From NCBI RefSeq assembly GCF_030384885.1, contig NZ_CP128613.1: 64,000 nucleotides of DNA; one strand, given 5' to 3'. Shown here one piece after another: positions 8,902-57,845 of this stretch; within the stretch, counting starts at the first letter, position 1; each line of letters begins with the position of its first letter. The notes beneath the pieces are model-generated. The model did not search any database. It was not told the DNA's origin and saw only the letters and a list, made by a program, of their open reading frames with translations. Source of the stretch: Escherichia coli. GTDB lineage: Bacteria > Pseudomonadota > Gammaproteobacteria > Enterobacterales > Enterobacteriaceae. The position numbers and the translations under genes are program-made.

Positions 8902-9018
8902 AACGCCTCCAGCCTCATTACTTACCCGCACAAAATAGAATTGTGCTGTACAAACGTCCAGTTTGAAAGAAGTTTCCTGCGAGGCGCTACGCAAAACGAT
9001 CCTTAATTTTTATTATTT

Positions 9019-16996: not shown

Positions 16997-18145
16997 ATGA
17001 GTGATATTATCTACCTGACCATAACCGGAGAACAACACGGATGTATTTCCTCTCGTTGTGGAACGAGCACATCAATAGGTAATCGCTGGCAGATTGGTCA
17101 TGAAGATGAAATCTTCGCATTCTCGCTCTCTAATAGTATTACGAATACAGGAAAAGGGTCACATTTGCATGGCCTTAGTTTCTGTAAGTTGATTGACAAA
17201 AGCTCCCCGTTACTTATTAACGCTATTAACAATAACGAGCAGTTGTTCATGGAGTTTGACTTCTATCGGATCAATAGATTTGGTCGATGGGAGAAATATT
17301 ACAACATTCAACTCCGCGGCGCGCTCTTATCAGCAATCAATCACCTGTTTACGGAGAACAATCTGGATACAGAAACCATCACTGTCAGTTATGAATATAT
17401 ACTCTCCAGGCATCTGATTGCTAATACTGAATTTAGTTATTTGGCATTTCCCGATAACTACAATCGTCTGTTTATACCACGGCCAAAAACTAAAGATGAT
17501 AATGGCCTCAAAACACTCAATAGTAAAGCTGTTGGCAGACTGCTTGCTGCTGGCGGCATATACAATGGGAATATCGAAGGATTCAGGGAAACAGCAAACA
17601 AGTTGGGGGGAGATGCACCTGCTGGTTACGATCAAGTTATGGATAACAAAGGGTTACTCATCGCTGGTGCTTCAATAGTTGCTGGAGCAGTTCTGGGGAG
17701 AATGAGACTCCCTGATTTGGAATCACTTGAGCATTTCGGAGCCAGAGGAGCAGTATCAGGAAGACCATTTAATCCCGACCTTGCCGGTGGTCCAATAGAA
17801 AATCTGACGACAGATGGCGTAACAATCAACAGGGAAGGTATCGCTATTGTTGAAAAACACATAGCCAGATTTGGTCATGACCCTGTAAATGAAGTGATGA
17901 TCAATAGACTGAAAGACATTGAGAAAGGAAAAATCCCCCCAGAACAAGTAGATCTTAACTTCTATACTCATGAATGTCGGGAATATCAGCGTTACTGTAA
18001 TCTTGGTTGGGAAACAGGACAACCTGATGGTGACGCAGGCTATGCACTCTGGAATCATACGCATACTGCTACTCTAGAAGATTATAAACTTAAGGGAGAA
18101 CTTAATGACTTATACCACCAGGACGCACTTGACTATGATAACTGA
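16997..18145 (+). CDS. Hcp (T6SS tube protein TssD) N-terminal domain fused to a C-terminal extension of unknown function, Hcp-ET-like; not associated with a T6SS gene cluster
   Basis: 382 aa; residues 1-155 carry the Hcp hallmark ...HGLSFCKLIDKSSPLLINAINNNEQLFMEFDFYRI...; residues about 156-382 are an extension with no Hcp counterpart; RBS AAGGA upstream; AT-rich. Confidence 0.75.
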   Translation: MSDIIYLTITGEQHGCISSRCGTSTSIGNRWQIGHEDEIFAFSLSNSITNTGKGSHLHGLSFCKLIDKSSPLLINAINNNEQLFMEFDFYRINRFGRWEKYYNIQLRGALLSAINHLFTENNLDTETITVSYEYILSRHLIANTEFSYLAFPDNYNRLFIPRPKTKDDNGLKTLNSKAVGRLLAAGGIYNGNIEGFRETANKLGGDAPAGYDQVMDNKGLLIAGASIVAGAVLGRMRLPDLESLEHFGARGAVSGRPFNPDLAGGPIENLTTDGVTINREGIAIVEKHIARFGHDPVNEVMINRLKDIEKGKIPPEQVDLNFYTHECREYQRYCNLGWETGQPDGDAGYALWNHTHTATLEDYKLKGELNDLYHQDALDYDN

Positions 18146-18380
18146 AACTGAAATTAACATACTGAAAGTTATGGCTGAGAAAGATATAAACTGGAACTGG
18201 ATGAATCTCGATCGCACACTATCTATAAGGCAAATTCCAGGATTCGGTAATGTTGTTAACATTGTTAACAAATTAGCTAACGAGGGTTTGGTTATTATTG
18301 AGGATAGCGGACATAAGTCTATGCCTCACTACCACGTTACTGATAAGGGATACAATCTCGTGAAAAGTGAGAATAAATAA
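18105..18380 (+). CDS. Small protein overlapping the 3' end of the Hcp-fusion gene; candidate cognate immunity protein (alternative start at 18135)
   Basis: 91 aa ORF with GGGAG RBS; overlaps the upstream stop, typical of toxin-immunity pairs; no recognisable family. Confidence 0.5.
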   Translation: MTYTTRTHLTMITETEINILKVMAEKDINWNWMNLDRTLSIRQIPGFGNVVNIVNKLANEGLVIIEDSGHKSMPHYHVTDKGYNLVKSENK

Positions 18381-20928: not shown

Positions 20929-21163
20929 TTTTCTTCCTCTAATTATATGTAAATCCTATGGATTTTGAATTTAGGGAAGGCGGCAAGTTTATTCATCCCC
21001 GGGAGCTTACTGAAGTAAGTGACCGGGGTGAAGAAACGCAGCCAACGCACCATAAATTTAAAAGACGAAGGATTTTAGCCGTCCAGATGTTTACACATCC
21101 ATAATTGGCGGTTACTGTATATTCCTCAAGCGCAAATTATTCATGCCGAAGTGAAGGACTTTC

Positions 21164-31179: not shown

Positions 31180-31560
31180 ATGAGTAAGGAATATATGAAC
31201 GATGGTTCATTAAGTGAAAAATGGAAATATCGCTTTAGTTTTTATGATCAACATGGCTTTCCTGGATTCTGGGGGGCAACACCAGAATATAAAGCAGCAT
31301 TTAAAGCATTAAAAGTAAGACAACGATTAACTATTCAAATTAATTTCATTGCTTTCTTCTGTTCCTGGATCTATCTATTTGTTCTGGGTTTATGGAAAAA
31401 AGCAATTATAGTTCTATTACTTTGCATTCTATCTCTATTTGTTGGTGCACTAATTGGCGTTAACATTTTGGGAATTGCCGTAGCAGCCTATGTTGCTGTT
31501 AACACGAACAAATGGTTTTATGAGAAAGAGGTAAAAGGGTTAAATACCTGGAGCCTTTGA
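31180..31560 (+). CDS. yigF: Small inner-membrane protein YigF (DUF2628)
   Basis: ORF 31138..31560; internal Met gives MSKEYMNDGSLSEKWKYRFSFYDQHGFPGFWGA... (126 aa). Confidence 0.6.
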   Translation: MSKEYMNDGSLSEKWKYRFSFYDQHGFPGFWGATPEYKAAFKALKVRQRLTIQINFIAFFCSWIYLFVLGLWKKAIIVLLLCILSLFVGALIGVNILGIAVAAYVAVNTNKWFYEKEVKGLNTWSL

Positions 31561-33769: not shown

Positions 33770-34672
33770 ATGAAAAAAACGCTCGCAACGTTATTTTTAT
33801 TAACGTGTCTGGGATCATCATCCGCCTATGCGGATAACGCTTTGATTTTACAAACTGATTTTAGCCTGAAAGATGGTGCCGTCTCGGCGATGAAAGGGGT
33901 CGCATTCGGCGTTGACCATAATCTTAAAATCTTTGATTTAACACACGAAATTCCACCGTATAACATCTGGGAAGGCGCTTATCGCCTGTATCAGACTGCC
34001 AGTTACTGGCCGCAAGGTTCGGTGTTTGTTAGCGTGGTCGATCCGGGCGTAGGCACTGACCGTAAATCGGTAGTGCTGAAAACCAAAAACGGTCAGTACT
34101 TCGTTTCACCAGATAACGGTACGCTCACTTTGGTGGCACAAACTCTGGGTATTGATAGCGTCCGGGAAATCGATGAAAAAGCTAACCGCCTGAAAGGTTC
34201 TGAAAAGTCATATACCTTCCACGGTCGTGACGTGTATGCCTACACCGGTGCACGCCTGGCTTCCGGGGCGATCACGTTCGAACAGGTGGGGCCAGAGCTT
34301 CCTGCAAAAGTTGTCGAACTTTCTTATCAGAAAGCAAAAGCAACAAAAGGTGAAGTGAAGGGAAATATCCCGATTCTCGATATTCAGTATGGCAACGTCT
34401 GGAGCAATATCAGCGACGAGTTGCTGAATCAGGCAGGAATCAAACTCAACGACACGTTGTGTGTGACCATTTCCGAAGGTTCCCAGAAAAAATACGAAGG
34501 GAAAATGCCGTATGTCGCAAGCTTCGGCGATGTGCCGGAAGGCCAGCCGATGGTGTATCTGAACAGCTTGTTGAATGTTTCCGTGGCGCTGAATATGGAT
34601 AATTTCGCGCAGAAACATCAGGTTGCGTCTGGTGCTGACTGGAATATTGATGTGAAGAAGTGCGCTAAGTAA
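33770..34672 (+). CDS. Secreted DUF62-family protein (SAM hydroxide adenosyltransferase / SAM hydrolase fold) with N-terminal signal peptide
   Basis: 300 aa; signal peptide MKKTLATLFLLTCLGSSSAYA; DUF62 hallmarks ILQTDFSLKDG, VVDPGVGTDR, VSPDNGTLT, TFHGRDVYAYTGARLASG. Confidence 0.75.
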   Translation: MKKTLATLFLLTCLGSSSAYADNALILQTDFSLKDGAVSAMKGVAFGVDHNLKIFDLTHEIPPYNIWEGAYRLYQTASYWPQGSVFVSVVDPGVGTDRKSVVLKTKNGQYFVSPDNGTLTLVAQTLGIDSVREIDEKANRLKGSEKSYTFHGRDVYAYTGARLASGAITFEQVGPELPAKVVELSYQKAKATKGEVKGNIPILDIQYGNVWSNISDELLNQAGIKLNDTLCVTISEGSQKKYEGKMPYVASFGDVPEGQPMVYLNSLLNVSVALNMDNFAQKHQVASGADWNIDVKKCAK

Positions 34673-34726: not shown

Positions 34727-36889
34727 TTATACCGTCTCCAGCCGGGCGTAAGCCGCCACCAGCCATTTAATACCCTGGCCCTGAAATGCCACCTGCAAAC
34801 GACTATGTTCGCCGCTGCCTTCCATATTGACGATAGTCCCTTCACCAAACTTGGCGTGTCGTACGCGCTGGCCGAGTTTGTAACCGCTGTCGTTCTCAAC
34901 CATCGGCGTACCCATACGCTGATGGCTGACCGGGCGGCTTACCGTAGCGCGTAAACGCACCTCTTCCACACACTCTTCCGGCAACTCGCCAATAAAACGC
35001 GACGGGCGATGGTAAACCTCTTTGCCATACAGACGCCGGGTTTCCGCGTAGGTCAGCGTCAGTTTCTGCATCGCGCGGGTTACGCCAACGTAGGCCAGAC
35101 GGCGTTCTTCTTCCAGACGCCCGCCTTCATCCAGCGACATCTGGCTTGGGAACATGCCCTCTTCCATACCGACAATAAACACCTGCGGGAATTCCAGACC
35201 TTTCGCCGAGTGTAGCGTCATCAGCTGTACCGCATCCTGCCAGGTATCCGCCTGCCCTTCACCTGCTTCCAGTGCCGCATGGGAGAGGAACGCCTGCAGC
35301 GGCATTAAATCTTCGTCTTCTTCGTTGTAGCTGAACTGGCGCGTTGCCGTCACCAGTTCCTCTAAGTTTTCGATACGCGTCTGGCCTTTTTCGCCCTTCT
35401 CCTGCTCGTACATGGTGCGCAGGCCGGAGTCTTTAATTACCCGATCAGTCTGTACATGCAGCGGCATATCGGCAGTTTCTTGCGCTAAGGCGTCGATCAG
35501 TTCCATAAACCGTTGCAAAGCGCTGGCAGCACGTCCGGCGAGGGCTTTTTCCTGCAACAGTTCACGACATGCCTGCCAGAGTGTTAACTGGCGATCGCGC
35601 GATGTCTGACGTACCACGTCCAGCGTCCGGTCACCAATACCCCGCGTTGGCGTATTGACCACACGCTCAAAGGCCGCGTCGTCGTTACGGTTGGCAATCA
35701 GGCGCAGATACGAGAGCGCATCTTTGATTTCCTGGCGTTCGAAGAAGCGCATCCCGCCATAAATACGGTACGGCATACTGGCTTGTAATAACGCCTCTTC
35801 CAGTACACGCGACTGGGCATTGCTGCGATAGAGAATGGCGCACTCGGCGAGCGCCCCGCCGTTATCCTGCCAGGTCTTGATACGGTTAACCACAAAACGC
35901 GCTTCGTCGAGTTCGTTAAAAGCGCAATAGAGGGAAATCGGCTCACCGTCCGCGCCATCGGTCCACAACTTTTTACCCAAACGCCCGTTGTTGTTTTCAA
36001 TCAGGGCGTTCGCCGCGCTCAGAATGTTGCTAGTGGAGCGGTAGTTTTGCTCCAGACGAATGGTTTCGGCACCGGGGAAATCATTGAGGAAACGCTGAAT
36101 ATTCTCTACCTGCGCCCCACGCCAGCCGTAGATTGACTGGTCGTCATCGCCAACGATCATCACTTTGCCAGTATCGCCCGCCAGCAGGCGGATCCACGCA
36201 TACTGAATGTTGTTGGTATCCTGGAATTCGTCTACCAGGATATTGGTAAAACGTTCGCGGTAGTGTTGCAGGATATGCGGCTTGTTAAGCCACAGTTCGT
36301 GGGCGCGTAGCAGTAGTTCAGCGAAGTCTACCAGGCCCGCGCGGTCGCACGCTTCCTGATACGCCTGGTACACCTTCTGCCAGGTCTGCTCCACCGGATT
36401 ACCGTAGCTTTGAATATGATGCGGACGCAGCCCTTCATCTTTCTGGCTGTTGATGTACCACATTGCCTGGCGCGGCGGCCACTGCTTCTCGTCGAGGTTC
36501 ATGGCTTTGATCAGACGCTTAAGCAGGCGCAGCTGGTCTTCGCTGTCGAGGATCTGGAAATCCTGCGGCAGGTTGGCGTCCATATGGTGCGCACGCAGCA
36601 GACGGTGTGCCAGCCCGTGGAAAGTGCCGACCCACATACCGCCCTGACTGGTGCCCATCAGTTGCCCGATACGATGGCGCATTTCCGCCGCCGCTTTGTT
36701 GGTAAATGTCACCGCCATAATCGAGTACGGCGAGCAGTTTTCCACGCTCATCAGCCAGGCGATACGATGCACCAGTACGCGCGTCTTACCACTGCCCGCG
36801 CCCGCCAGCACCAGAAGGTTGCTGCGTGGCGCGGCCACCGCTTCGCGCTGTTTGTCATTAAGGCTGTCGAGCAGGTAAGAAACGTCCAT
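34727..36889 (-). CDS. uvrD: DNA helicase II UvrD
   Basis: ORF 34727..37075; start trimmed to MDVSYLLDSLNDKQREAVAAPRSNLLVLAGAGSGKTRVL (720 aa). Confidence 0.95.
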   Translation of the reverse strand: MDVSYLLDSLNDKQREAVAAPRSNLLVLAGAGSGKTRVLVHRIAWLMSVENCSPYSIMAVTFTNKAAAEMRHRIGQLMGTSQGGMWVGTFHGLAHRLLRAHHMDANLPQDFQILDSEDQLRLLKRLIKAMNLDEKQWPPRQAMWYINSQKDEGLRPHHIQSYGNPVEQTWQKVYQAYQEACDRAGLVDFAELLLRAHELWLNKPHILQHYRERFTNILVDEFQDTNNIQYAWIRLLAGDTGKVMIVGDDDQSIYGWRGAQVENIQRFLNDFPGAETIRLEQNYRSTSNILSAANALIENNNGRLGKKLWTDGADGEPISLYCAFNELDEARFVVNRIKTWQDNGGALAECAILYRSNAQSRVLEEALLQASMPYRIYGGMRFFERQEIKDALSYLRLIANRNDDAAFERVVNTPTRGIGDRTLDVVRQTSRDRQLTLWQACRELLQEKALAGRAASALQRFMELIDALAQETADMPLHVQTDRVIKDSGLRTMYEQEKGEKGQTRIENLEELVTATRQFSYNEEDEDLMPLQAFLSHAALEAGEGQADTWQDAVQLMTLHSAKGLEFPQVFIVGMEEGMFPSQMSLDEGGRLEEERRLAYVGVTRAMQKLTLTYAETRRLYGKEVYHRPSRFIGELPEECVEEVRLRATVSRPVSHQRMGTPMVENDSGYKLGQRVRHAKFGEGTIVNMEGSGEHSRLQVAFQGQGIKWLVAAYARLETV

Positions 36890-36947
36890 TGGCACCGCCG
36901 CGTAAAAATAGGTTGGGCGGAGAAGCGCAACGCCCTCCGCCAAAAAG

Positions 36948-36963
36948 CTGGGTATATATACAG
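36948..36963. promoter_or_regulatory. LexA (SOS) box upstream of uvrD
   Basis: Reverse complement CTGTATATATACCCAG fits CTGT-N8-ACAG, about 60 bp upstream of the uvrD start. Confidence 0.7.
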
Positions 36964-36972
36964 ATTTGCTGA

Positions 36973-37689
36973 TTATATCAGCGAGGTCAGAGATGCCAAC
37001 CGGGAAATTTCCAGATGCGGGAGTAAACGGCTGTCCCAGGTTTGCATCAGATCGCCATTTTCCGGTCTGATCCAACAGGCCTGCATTCCGCTGCGAATTG
37101 CCCCACCCACGTCAGTGGTGAGATCGTCCCCAACATGTAAGATCTCGCCGATCGGCACGTTGAGTTTTTCCGCCGCCAGGAAGTACATATCGCTGAACGG
37201 TTTCGAGCGCCCGTGCGGACCAGCGCGCAGCACAAACTCAAAATAATCCCCCAAACCAAACAGCTCCGGCTGGGCGTTACCGTTGGTGATCGCCACCAGC
37301 GGCCATTTCTTCGCCAGCTGTTTTAAGGTGTCGTGCGTTTGCTGCGGAACGTCGATCCGGCTACGCCATTTGGCAAAGTTGATCATTGCCGCGTGTGCGC
37401 CTGCACTGGCTTCTTCTGCGCTCAGCCCGGCGTCGAGCATCGCTTGTTCTATTGAGCGAAAACGCCAGCGCGTCACATCATGATAAATCTCGGGTTCCGC
37501 TTCCCGTACCGCCTGACGCAGACGTTGCAGATCTTCATTCTGGAAGCTGCGCAGCGCCGGATGGTAATTTTGCACAAAGGTAAGCGCCTCCTGCTCAGTG
37601 CGCAAAATCACCGGACGGTTATCGTAAAGGGTATCATCCAGGTCAAAGGTGAGCGCCGAGATGCGCCCCAAAGGCCGGTAAAAACGCAT
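36973..37689 (-). CDS. yigB: HAD-family phosphatase YigB (riboflavin pathway)
   Basis: 238 aa [30 protein letters not shown]... Confidence 0.85.
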
Positions 37690-40538: not shown

Positions 40539-42017
40539 ATGCACTATCGCAATGTGGTTTGTTTGTTGTCTTGTTCGTTATTCTTATCCCCGGCATGGGG
40601 ATGTCGGCTTTCCGCGCCTGAACATAATATTTACCAGAAACAGGGAAAAGGCGTGGTGTACCTGCGCCCTTATAAAGAAACAAATCTTTCTCTACCTGAC
40701 GTGAATTACAAGAGTTTGCGTCGTTTACCTAATTTATTAATAGACGCAACAACACAAGATGAATGGAATAAAGAACCACCTCTGACTGATCTAACAACTG
40801 ACAACCTCTATGAGGGCGCACAAGCCTGGTATCCCCATTACTCCTGGCATAGCGATGGTCGCTATATCCTCTACGCGGGTGAAGTAGTGCAAAATCCTCA
40901 CGACGCACCACCCGTCGATATCGCCTCATTCAAGGCATGGGGAGATTTTGCCGCGGATAAACACAGTCTCTATTTTGAAGGCAAGCGCACCGATAACAAT
41001 GGCGGGGGAAATAGCTTAGATATCAAAACACTGCATCAGGTGGAATTCCGGCCTCCCTGGGATCCTGACTTACTGGGGCTGATATTACGTGACGCTAATT
41101 TCTTGTATATCAATGGGCATCGCCTCGCAGATCCCGATAGTTTCCGTGTGCTGGCACAAAAGTCATGGGATCAGCGAGGAAAGTTTTCTACCGCGTTTAA
41201 TCCCTGTGTGGCTATGCCATTTGGCCCTTGGGATACCCTGGCTCGTACACGGACCAAAATCCTGATCAACGGCGAACAGCTTGATGCCGACCCGGACACC
41301 TTTTCCGTCGTGCGCTGGATGCCCGGCTCACTCTTGACCTGGCGTGATAAAAACGGGCTACAGCGTAAAGTCCTCGACAAGGAAAATCTGGCGTGGGATG
41401 AAGATTTAACAAAGCACTGTCTGGATTTTTCTCTGCTGGAAAAGAAAGTGTTCTGGCGTAAAGGGCCTGCTTGTAAACAGGAAGAAGTACCGGGGCTCGA
41501 TCCTGAACAGTTCCACCCCATCAGTGATGCTGTCGCCCAGTATCAGGATTCGCTTTATACCATCATCGAAACAGAGTCTGGTGACCGCAACCTGGAGATC
41601 GTAAAACTTGATGATCCCAATCTTATTATCAACAAACGTTTCAACGCCGGGAAACGCCATGGCTATTTACTTACGCGTGCCGAAGGGTGGCCAAACCATT
41701 CCGGTTTACACGTGTTTGAATCTGACGGACCGCTGATCTTACTGGATAACCACTCTCCGGATGAACGCGAAGCCCATCTTGATGACCATCCCTTTTTGCG
41801 CAGATGGTATGCCCGCGATAACCGCTACGTTTACAGCTTTGATGGCGCGCAGCTCTGGCGATACCGCACCGCGGATCCGAAACAAGTTCGCTTAATCTGG
41901 AAGGAACAACATTCGGGATATGGCTATGGCGTAAATTACAAAACGGGATATCTGGACGGAAAAATTACCGATGACGGCGAATTTATTCCTGCCCCGCGCA
42001 ATGAGGCGACAAAATGA
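40539..42017 (+). CDS. Secreted repeat protein, paralog 1 (DKNYY-like repeats; unknown function)
   Basis: ORF 40509..42017; start trimmed to MHYRNVVCLLSCSLFLSPAWG (signal-like); internal repeats such as DANFLYINGHRLADPDSFRV / TKILINGEQLDADPDTFSVV. Confidence 0.65.
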   Translation: MHYRNVVCLLSCSLFLSPAWGCRLSAPEHNIYQKQGKGVVYLRPYKETNLSLPDVNYKSLRRLPNLLIDATTQDEWNKEPPLTDLTTDNLYEGAQAWYPHYSWHSDGRYILYAGEVVQNPHDAPPVDIASFKAWGDFAADKHSLYFEGKRTDNNGGGNSLDIKTLHQVEFRPPWDPDLLGLILRDANFLYINGHRLADPDSFRVLAQKSWDQRGKFSTAFNPCVAMPFGPWDTLARTRTKILINGEQLDADPDTFSVVRWMPGSLLTWRDKNGLQRKVLDKENLAWDEDLTKHCLDFSLLEKKVFWRKGPACKQEEVPGLDPEQFHPISDAVAQYQDSLYTIIETESGDRNLEIVKLDDPNLIINKRFNAGKRHGYLLTRAEGWPNHSGLHVFESDGPLILLDNHSPDEREAHLDDHPFLRRWYARDNRYVYSFDGAQLWRYRTADPKQVRLIWKEQHSGYGYGVNYKTGYLDGKITDDGEFIPAPRNEATK

Positions 42018-43342
42018 AAGGTCAAATAATCACAGTTGCACTCATCCTGTTGGGGCACACATTTCTGACACCTGCTGTACAGGCCATAGGGTTCGACTAT
42101 TACAATGATCACGGTGTTATGTCTTACGGTAAAGGTTATGGGGAGGATGAGAAAATTATTGCCCAATTTCCGAAGATGAACAGAGCCGATTTGCGCCTTG
42201 TGACAAATATATCCGGGAAGCGGGAGTTAGTGGAAGGCTATATACCCACCGATGAAATAAGCATAAAAAATGAGGAATACCACTGGGTGACAGACGGCCA
42301 CGTTATTCTCTGGCGTGGCAAAATCGTTAGCAATCCACCGGGAACACCCACTGTCGATATTGCCAGCTTTCAAGCTATGGGCCGCTTCGCGGTCGATAAA
42401 TATAGCCTCTATTTTGACGGACAGCGCACCGAAAGTAATAGCGGCGCGTCACGTGTTGATCTGGCGACACTAAAAGCTATCGAAGGTAACTCTACCACGC
42501 TGGTGGATAGTAAAAATCTCTACTTGTCCGGTCGACGTCAGGGGAGCAGCAGTAATGTTACTGTATTAGAAAAAAGATGGTGGGGTATTAATCCACGTCT
42601 TATGAGTGTAAACAGAAATTTGTATTCCAATGATCTGCTTATCCGCAGTGGGCAGAATATTTATTTAAATGGCGTTCACCTTACGGCAAATGCAGACTCA
42701 TTTGAGATAATTCGCTGGATACCTCATTCACTGCTGGTTTTTCGCGACAATAAGGGTATGCATCGTTATCCCTTTGGTCAATTATCAGGCAAGGCAATAC
42801 CCGTAGATGATGACGTCTCTTTTGAAGTAGGGGAAAGTCGCGTTCGCTGGCGTAAACAGCTCACGCCCGACCGTCAGTGGAGCCAGTGGATAGACCTACC
42901 AAGTATTGAACCTGAACAATTTCATCTGATTACTGACAATATTGCGCAGTATAAAGATCGGCTGTATGTAACAAAATTATCGACTTTTGGTGAAGACCAG
43001 CTTGAAATAATCCCGCTGGATTCGCCAGACCTGGTCATTGATCACTCATTTAATCGCGGCAAACAGCATGCTTACTTTATCCACCAATTACGGTCACGCA
43101 AGAGCGTGCAAATTATTCCAACTAACAGCCCGCTAACTAAAAACGATCGCTTTGCTTATGACGATCGCAATGTTTATACATGGACCGATACAGAGGTAAG
43201 GATTACACCCTCCCCCTGCCCAGCGAAAACATACGTCAGAGAAAAGAATGTCCGTGAAATTCATAACAGCGACATTATTATTCCGGTGACGGAGGAATCG
43301 TGCCGGAACGCAGCAGCAGACGGGCAAACTTTGAAGCCCTGA
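42014..43342 (+). CDS. Secreted repeat protein, paralog 2 (DKNYY-like repeats; unknown function)
   Basis: 442 aa; signal peptide [24 protein letters not shown]; start ATG overlaps the upstream stop (ATGA); shares blocks VDIASF.A.G.FA.DK.SLYF.G.RT and EPEQFH.I.D..AQY.D.LY with paralog 1. Confidence 0.7.
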
Positions 43343-56357: not shown

Positions 56358-56459
56358 TTAGCGCCGTTGCGGGGGTGGATAATACGGACTTCCCACCCCT
56401 CTGTCTAGTCCCTTTTTAAATAAATTGCGCGTTTGGTTACGGTTTGTGCGTTTTGCTGC

Positions 56460-57845
56460 TTATTCCTCCAGTTTATGCGCTTTACCGTGGCGATTAAGCC
56501 CAAAAACTTTATAAATTGCCGTCACCGCCAGCATAAAGATGATGCCGACAAACAGCGACATACGCGTATCTTCATTAAAGTACATGCCGATCAAAACGCA
56601 AATCAGGAATGCCATTGTTACGTAGTTGGCCCACGGGAACAGGATTGAGCGGAACGGATGGCTGGCAATCGCCGCTTTGTGCGCTCGACGAAAACGCAAC
56701 TGGCTAATCAAAATCACAAACCATGGCACCATCCCCGGAAGCACGCTGGCACTGTAGACATAGACAAACACACGCTGTGGATTGGGAATGATGTAGTTCA
56801 GGCATGAGCCAATTAACAGAATAGCAATTGATACCGCCACGCCTGCAACCGGAACACCTTGACGGGAAACTTTCGCCATCGCCGCCGGTAACTGACGGTT
56901 TTTCGCCAGCGCATAGAGCATACGTCCGCAACTGTACATGCCGCTGTTACAGCCAGAGAGCGCAGCCGTCAGCACCACAAAGTTGATAATACCCGCCGCT
57001 GCGGTAATGCCGATTTTGGCGAAAGTCAGTACGAACGGGCTGCCGTTGCTGCCAATTTCATTCCACGGGAAGATGGTGACAATAACGAAAATCGCACCTA
57101 CGTAGAAAATCAGGATTCGCCACAGCACTTTGCCAACGGCACTGCGCAGTGTCACCTGCGGATTCTTCGCTTCACCGGCCGTAATGCCAATCAGCTCCAC
57201 GCCCTGGTAAGACGCCACCACGATACACAATGCGGTCAGGAACCCTTTCCAGCCACCCGCAAAGAAACCGCCATGCTCTGTGAGATTGCTAAAACCAATC
57301 GACTGCCCGCCATTGCCAAAGCCAAAGAAAATCACGCCCAGGCCAATGACAATCATCACGATAATCGTGGTGACTTTGATCATCGCGAACCAGAATTCGA
57401 TTTCACCGTACAACCGCACCGCCGCCAGATTCGCCAGTGCCACCAGCGCCACCGCGATCAATGCCGGTATCCATTGCGCCATCTCCGGGAACCAGAACTG
57501 GACATAAACGCCAATGGCGGTGATTTCTGAGATCCCCACCGCCATCCACATAAACCAATAAGACCAGGCGGTGAGATAGCCAAAGAACGGGCTCATATAA
57601 CGATGCGCATAAACGGCGAACGAACCGGTAACCGGTTCGAGGAACAACATTTCGCCCATTGAACGCATGATGAAAAAGACGAACAGCCCGGCGATGATAT
57701 AGGCCAACAATACGGATGGCCCGGCCCATTTCAGGGTACTGGCGGCCCCCATAAACAGGCCGACGCCAATGGTGCCCCCCAGGGCGATGAGTTCGATATG
57801 TCGAGCTTCCAGCCCACGCTGTAGCTCTGGTTTGTTATCTGCCAT
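56460..57845 (-). CDS. yifK: Amino-acid permease YifK (APC family)
   Basis: 461 aa [36 protein letters not shown]... Confidence 0.9.

Follow-up and report, generated by a model that had tools for sequence, protein, structure and literature searches.

The question raised by this locus is whether a short palindrome located immediately upstream of uvrD is the operator through which LexA controls this gene. The window, by which we mean the whole stretch of DNA that was analysed, is 64,000 nt of an Escherichia coli chromosome (contig NZ_CP128613.1), and the first-pass annotation had placed an SOS box at positions 36948..36963 of it. We conclude that ATCTGTATATATACCCAGCT is almost certainly the LexA operator of the uvrD promoter, which would act by occlusion of the promoter and derepression. 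For this conclusion we used the sequence itself, its identity with the K-12 sequence, its rank in a weight-matrix scan, the promoter geometry and the conservation, all of which were observed directly, and the literature, from which LexA control and induction by DNA damage are taken.

The work of Easton and Kushner in 1983 (NAR 11:8625) is said to be the primary demonstration of LexA control of uvrD, and the uvrD box reportedly appears in the SOS-box compilations of Lewis (1994), Fernandez de Henestrosa (2000) and Courcelle (2001). A LexA dimer binds a 20-bp box, and filaments of RecA on single-stranded DNA stimulate the self-cleavage of LexA, by which its targets are derepressed (PMC6590174, PMC11228462). 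In PMC3009722, the exact 25-mer AAATCTGTATATATACCCAGCTTTT is entered as the LexA motif that precedes uvrD, a UV-induced gene. Easton and Kushner (1983) is cited for uvrD in PMC7835731, and the cited title names attenuation.

Position and composition of the operator

The features on which the argument depends are the following:
34727..36889, minus strand: uvrD, DNA helicase II, 720 aa, 2163-nt coding sequence (RefSeq annotation of the closest strain and of K-12; ORF list)
36946..36965, minus strand: LexA operator (SOS box) ATCTGTATATATACCCAGCT, 20 bp (sequence, weight matrix, K-12 identity, literature listing, cross-species conservation)
36973..37689, minus strand: yigB, the last gene of the dapF-yigA-xerC-yigB cluster

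At 36948..36963 the plus strand reads CTGGGTATATATACAG, and its reverse complement on the minus strand, CTGTATATATACCCAG, is the 16-bp core of the operator. The half-sites are CTG at 36963..36961 and CAG at 36950..36948, which occupy positions 3-5 and 16-18 of the operator; over its 20 bp, ATCTGTATATATACCCAGCT has dyad symmetry and contains the near-invariant CTG-N10-CAG. The core had been described in the first-pass annotation as a fit to CTGT-N8-ACAG on the reverse strand. The fit extends to only 15 of the 16 positions, the right arm being CCAG (one mismatch), with the CTG-N10-CAG core intact, and the designation as the SOS box of uvrD stands, whereas the strand label is meaningless for a dyad-symmetric operator. 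The central spacer TATATATACC, which is AT-rich and (TA)n-like, equals the consensus at positions 6-13 and differs from it at 14 and 15; over its full length, the operator is off consensus at positions 1, 2, 14, 15, 19 and 20. C at position 15, which 7 of the 18 proven sites carry, is reported to be favourable to LexA binding (PMC5999292).

Between the 16-mer and the uvrD ATG (36889..36887, minus strand), 58 nt were counted, in good agreement with the distance of about 60 bp given previously. Along the minus strand, the order of the elements is the end of yigB, the promoter, a 6-nt spacer, the operator, a T-rich linker, a GC-rich hairpin which the linker precedes, a T5 run and the uvrD ATG.

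Start of uvrD and neighbouring genes

The box had also been taken as an anchor for the shorter of two possible uvrD frames, the longer one being as follows:
34727..37075, minus strand: TTG-initiated 782-aa ORF (mechanical ORF list)

The 720-aa start was preferred to the 782-aa ORF with good reason, as judged from the annotation, from the conserved N-terminus and from the frame-breaking indels that were found upstream of the uvrD ATG in orthologues. The N-terminus MDVSYLLDSLNDKQREAVAA is conserved, and MDVSYLLDSLNDKQ was found to start at the homologous ATG (MDVS...) in more than 100 species. The 782-aa ORF was rejected as an artefact: its 62 additional codons would be read through the promoter, the operator and the hairpin, and would lie over yigB in a different frame. 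The 3' end of yigB holds the -35 element and most of the -10 element of uvrD, and the box is located 7 nt past the yigB stop codon. The gene order dapF-yigA-xerC-yigB-uvrD was found in both strain 2013C-4282 and K-12 MG1655.

Several observations on other parts of the window are recorded here. A 300-aa gene annotated as a member of the SAM hydrolase/SAM-dependent halogenase family (33770..34672, plus strand) is located between uvrD and yigE; it is not in K-12 MG1655 and is present in 2413 of the 5426 complete E. coli genomes (presence/absence polymorphism). According to the annotation of the closest matching strain, two adjoining DKNYY family genes are located at 40539..43342 (plus strand) between lptM and cyaY; the K-12 gene order presumably does not include them. 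For the closest matching assembly, the annotation gives tssD (type VI secretion tube protein) and yigF as frameshifted pseudogenes, and 1-nt indels between the window and this assembly were found near these genes, at about 17000..18150 and 31180..31560; their cause is either genuine variation between the strains or a sequencing error at homopolymers in one of the two assemblies. The idea that the window is colinear base for base with 2013C-4282 was abandoned, since offsets of 1-2 nt occur below about 31,200, and this strain is thus regarded as a close relative.

Statistical evaluation of the LexA motif

A search with the bare consensus was uninformative as evidence: in the 64-kb window, the loose CTGT-N8-ACAG with at most one mismatch was found 23 times versus 18.4 ± 4.0 expected, that is, with no enrichment. 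A position weight matrix was therefore used instead, which was symmetrised, had 20 columns and was built from the 17 E. coli sites in Table 4 of PMC3009722, with uvrD left out. With this matrix, the uvrD 20-mer scored 15.41 bits and was ranked first among the approximately 64,000 positions of the window. The first-pass annotation had staked its site on a LexA weight-matrix scan, a poor score counting against it, and the site turned out to be the best match. The exact probability of 15.41 bits is 1.5e-6 per position (0.10 expected per 64-kb window), and 5% of the windows simulated with a first-order Markov model attained the score of the uvrD box; taken alone, these whole-window statistics would be only borderline. 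Within the 83-nt spacer between yigB and uvrD, the expectation of such a score is approximately 1e-4. When each site was left out in turn, uvrD was ranked 15th of the 18 proven sites, ahead of dinB, dinG and polB, and its HI-like index, calculated from 17 sites, was 7.8, within the membership range for proven LexA sites (HI < 15). The uvrD box is a weak yet normal member of the proven LexA set.

The loose-consensus count (23 versus 18.4) and the equal score in 5% of random 64-kb windows agree with the view that the site is a chance AT-rich palindrome, or a mere initial transcribed sequence, in which LexA has no role. However, the top match of the matrix falls exactly at the promoter of a gene that is proven to be regulated by LexA.

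The second match of the matrix was as follows:
8944..8963, approximately 41 nt upstream of the start of rmuC (gene on the minus strand): rmuC (yigN) box AACTGGACGTTTGTACAGCA (weight-matrix rank 2, 14.44 bits)

AACTGGACGTTTGTACAGCA is the known SOS box of rmuC, with which the window has two genuine LexA operators, and it serves as a positive control for the matrix because it was absent from the training set. The gene rmuC is a classical member of the SOS set, and the published HI of its box is 8.8 (PMC11228462). The third match, TACTGTATATTCCTCAAGCG (21113..21132; 11.3 bits), is located in the divergent spacer of metE and metR and has one perfect LexA half-site, TACTGTATAT, with the other arm broken; the fourth (56454..56473; 11.1 bits) lies across the 3' end of a 461-aa ORF. 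Both were set aside as probably due to chance; about 0.7-0.8 matches of approximately 11.1-11.3 bits are expected per window.

Conservation within E. coli and across species

A 501-nt query around the site was found in 5425 of the 5426 complete E. coli genomes with 95-100% identity, always across yigB/uvrD, and strain 2013C-4282 matched it at 100%. The 38 nt over the -10 element and the box were 100% identical in 5413 of these 5425 genomes, and in the same proportion (5413/5425) the non-consensus bases at operator positions 14, 15, 19 and 20 are fixed. From the -35 element through the operator and the hairpin to the ATG, the sequence is that of K-12 MG1655; the single difference in 191 aligned nt is located further upstream, in yigB. 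The comparison with the K-12 uvrD promoter, which had been proposed as a check, thus gave an identical sequence, and the earlier statement that uvrD is under SOS control holds, the sequence being that of K-12, in which uvrD is a classical LexA-regulated gene; the literature agrees.

For the comparison across species, each of which was represented by a single genome, loci were retrieved with a degenerate pattern for the conserved UvrD N-terminal sequence NDKQREAVAAP, so that the retrieval was independent of the promoter. Among the 120 gammaproteobacterial loci retrieved, 118 had usable upstream sequence. Of the 118 species, 102 (86%) were found to have a box that scores 10 bits or more in the 250 nt that precede the uvrD ATG, and 70 (59%) one that scores 14 bits or more. 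As controls, 10 bits were attained by 0.95% of shuffled upstream regions and by 0.75% of 3334 real 250-nt windows from the same loci, and 14 bits by none of the 3334 real windows; the excess of boxes upstream of the uvrD orthologues over the controls is roughly 100-fold. By group, the numbers of species in which a box scored 10 bits or more were as follows:
Enterobacterales: 35 of 36
Vibrionaceae: 31 of 32
Pasteurellaceae: 11 of 13
Alteromonadales (broad sense): 22 of 24
Shewanella: 0 of 3
Marinomonas: 1 of 7

In an alignment of 10 Enterobacterales, CTGTA.A.A....CCAG, TTGG and TGNTATAAT were invariant; note that the part of the promoter upstream of the -10 element is also yigB coding sequence. 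In the same 10 species, the -10 element and the box are separated by a spacer of variable sequence and of 1-13 nt, and the leader on the 3' side of the box was unalignable beyond the closest genera. The same 16-mer core was found in E. albertii, Citrobacter and Phytobacter. An invariant box with a variable spacer and a variable leader is consistent with a protein-binding site that is constrained by its own sequence, and inconsistent with a constraint of start distance or of coding. The invariance of the arms in Enterobacterales despite a distance of 1-13 nt to the -10 element is also unlike a constraint on a transcription start or a discriminator, and it stands, together with the roughly 100-fold excess, against a chance palindrome or a mere initial transcribed sequence. 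Because the uvrD box is conserved both across species and among the E. coli genomes, we regard the chance reading as effectively refuted and leave it next to no probability.

The palindrome could also serve another factor or another transcript, namely as an element of an antisense promoter on the plus strand or as a signal at the 3' end of yigB. The short distance of only 7 nt between the yigB stop codon and the box is consistent with this, as is the lack of an intrinsic strand in a site with dyad symmetry. However, no plus-strand promoter-like site was found in 36500..37500, no plus-strand gene is annotated at the box, and a scan of 36500..37400 against Rfam (E <= 1) gave no family. Furthermore, in Vibrionaceae and Pasteurellaceae, of which the upstream neighbourhood is different, the box stays with uvrD, 7-17 nt from its ATG. 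A function of this kind is therefore very improbable, and the site is treated as the LexA operator of uvrD in what follows.

The 31 Vibrionaceae boxes have a form of their own. They are located just 3' of a TATAAT -10 element, with 7-15 nt left to the uvrD ATG, and in 31 of 31 the promoter-proximal arm is A/G/T-TG, not CTG (for example, TTATGTATAAATAACCAGTA; the loci include L003, L007, L011, L016, L017, L019, L020, L024, L034 and L063). CTG-N10-CAG was found in 0 of the 31 Vibrionaceae versus 33 of 35 Enterobacterales. The Vibrionaceae uvrD box has the look of an operator that is deliberately degenerate and conserved as such. A LexA-like box was absent from the 250 nt upstream of uvrD (best score, <1 bit) in Shewanella (L074, L076 and L110), Marinomonas (L027, L053, L060, L061, L086 and L088), Xenorhabdus ehlersii (L046) and Thalassotalea (L090 and L097), which suggests that in these lineages uvrD left the SOS regulon or is transcribed from further upstream.

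Promoter and model of repression

The following elements were assigned upstream of the operator and at its edge:
36972..36999, minus strand: sigma-70 promoter of uvrD (11 of 12 positions matched, TG before the -10 element)
36964..36967, minus strand: predicted transcription start, A (5-7 nt past the -10 element, from the geometry)

The promoter consists of the -35 element TTGGCA (36999..36994), a 16-nt spacer, TG at 36980..36979 and the -10 element TATAAT (36977..36972), the last of which overlaps the yigB stop codon TAA (36975..36973). This TTGGCA-16-TGaTATAAT is the sole promoter-like site in 36500..37500. The operator begins 6 nt past the -10 hexamer, and it would therefore cover the predicted start, from about +1 to +20 of the uvrD transcript, in keeping with the overlap of promoter or start that is typical of a LexA operator.

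With the operator in this place, repression would consist in a block of RNA polymerase at the start site. In the undamaged cell, a LexA dimer would bind both half-sites (CTG and CAG) and, lying over the predicted start, would hinder the binding of RNA polymerase, the formation of the open complex or the escape from the promoter. Upon DNA damage, RecA filaments on single-stranded DNA would trigger the self-cleavage of LexA, the operator would be vacated, and transcription of uvrD would rise. The combination of a weak, off-consensus operator with a strong, near-consensus extended -10 promoter would make repression leaky, and it would account both for a high basal level of helicase II and for an induction that comes early and is small, at around 2- to 4-fold. 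The GC-rich hairpin and the T-run of the 5' untranslated region may add a second, LexA-independent layer (attenuation).

The published measurements allow the share of LexA to be weighed. The HI of the uvrD box is 8.5, and for uvrD an induction by AZT of 2.1-fold and a dependence on cleavable LexA (lexA3) of 1.7-fold are given (PMC11228462). Ciprofloxacin induces uvrD up to a log2 value of 2.19 (PMC11002266). In a study in which LexA was measured on 28 native operators, a fusion of the uvrD promoter to GFP was UV-inducible and 'early', with a peak at 35-38 min regardless of the dose (PMC5999292). Such values would also agree with the view that LexA binds the site with little consequence, uvrD being approximately constitutive, with its level set by the leader attenuator, by a strong promoter and by transcripts that continue from dapF-yigB, and the box being marginal. 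The low ranking of the operator (HI 8.5; 15th of 18 by the leave-one-out matrix), the small size of the two effects in PMC11228462 and the arrangement of yigB and uvrD, between which there is no terminator-like site except the leader hairpin, all favour this view. On the other hand, the box is kept in 102 of the 118 species as the leader turns over, which argues for purifying selection on LexA control, and it is nearly invariant in the 5425 E. coli genomes. In addition, uvrD responds reproducibly to UV, ciprofloxacin and AZT, and nalidixic acid induces the Salmonella gene 13.9-fold (PMC8072944). We therefore consider a LexA site of little consequence unlikely, and keep the reading in which LexA occludes the start until damage occurs. 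How large a share LexA has in the expression of uvrD in vivo, and what the hairpin does, are less certain than the identity of the site.

Leader hairpin

Two elements were found between the operator and the uvrD ATG, downstream of the T-rich linker:
36916..36941, minus strand: leader hairpin GGCGGAGGGCG-TTG-CGC-T-TCTCCGCC in the uvrD 5' untranslated region (minimum free energy (MFE) and centroid structures)
36904..36908, minus strand: T5 run, which begins 7 nt past the hairpin stem (sequence)

The leader folds with about -20 kcal/mol into a GC-rich stem of 11+8 pairs, in both the MFE and the centroid structures. The hairpin of Citrobacter youngae has a compensatory change of G/C to T/A, and in other Enterobacterales the corresponding place is taken by hairpins that are not homologous to it. 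The z value of the whole 87-nt leader was +0.58 versus shuffled sequences, which is not significant, in a test that is blunted by the GC-rich composition. A scan with a terminator consensus made no call on the minus strand in the uvrD leader; it missed the hairpin because the gap of 7 nt between the stem and the T-run is atypical of an intrinsic terminator, in which the U-run follows the stem after 0-2 nt.

The 1983 title, the local structure and the one compensatory change together indicate that the hairpin is probably the published 'attenuation' site of uvrD, and a literature search for 'uvrD attenuator' gave no secondary description. It does not count as a canonical intrinsic terminator and, following the title, would act like an attenuator. 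Since yigB is followed by no further terminator-like element, transcripts that continue from yigB and the dapF operon may also end at the hairpin. The fixed non-consensus bases of the operator, the 16-mer core shared with E. albertii, Citrobacter and Phytobacter and the still more degenerate box of the Vibrionaceae leave room for a further reading. We propose tentatively, as a possibility that is open to considerable doubt, that the weakness of the operator is a selected trait which keeps uvrD leaky, early and low in amplitude across the gammaproteobacteria, and that the hairpin is both the terminator of dapF-yigA-xerC-yigB and the attenuator of uvrD.

Comparison with known systems

The value of the site is that of an annotation check: the window is confirmed as E. 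coli chromosome, the 720-aa start of uvrD is supported, and a textbook SOS operator is found at its place. The uvrD and rmuC boxes can be used as two internal positive controls for LexA scans of the window. The site itself brings no new biology; the degenerate box of the Vibrionaceae, the absence of the box in Shewanella and Marinomonas and the turnover of the leader hairpin are mildly interesting by-products. As far as the sequence permits a judgement, ATCTGTATATATACCCAGCT has all the features of a gammaproteobacterial LexA operator, and binding and LexA-dependent induction are taken from the literature.

The rmuC box resembles the uvrD box in having CTG-N10-CAG and a weak-to-medium strength (HI 8.8 versus 8.5; PMC11228462), and differs from it in the spacer GACGTTTGTA, which is not a (TA)n run, and in the gene and the promoter context. 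The recA operator, like that of uvrD, is a 20-bp site for a LexA dimer that is derepressed upon the triggering by activated RecA (RecA*). However, it is located between the -35 and -10 elements (PMC5999292), whereas the uvrD operator is located downstream of the -10 element, over the predicted start site. The recA operator is also stronger (20.8 bits with the leave-one-out matrix; HI 5.0, PMC11228462), and that of uvrD is weaker, with an earlier and smaller induction.

In Salmonella enterica, the orthologous uvrD is likewise regulated by lexA and induced by damage; its box is reported to be located 105 bp from the ATG with an HI of 11.48 (PMC8072944), compared with 56-58 nt and an HI of 8.5 in E. 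coli. In PMC8072944, Pang and Walker (1983) is cited for Salmonella uvrD, and the heterogeneity of uvrD in the absence of induction is described as LexA-independent.

The closest system is the uvrD operator of K-12 MG1655, which has the same sequence from the -35 element to the ATG, the same flanking genes, yigB and uvrD, and the same published 25-mer. Relative to K-12, there is no difference in the regulatory region; the window has the extra 300-aa gene downstream of uvrD and one synonymous-region mismatch in yigB. The site in the window is thus the uvrD SOS box of K-12, base for base, which is already known and was described forty years ago.
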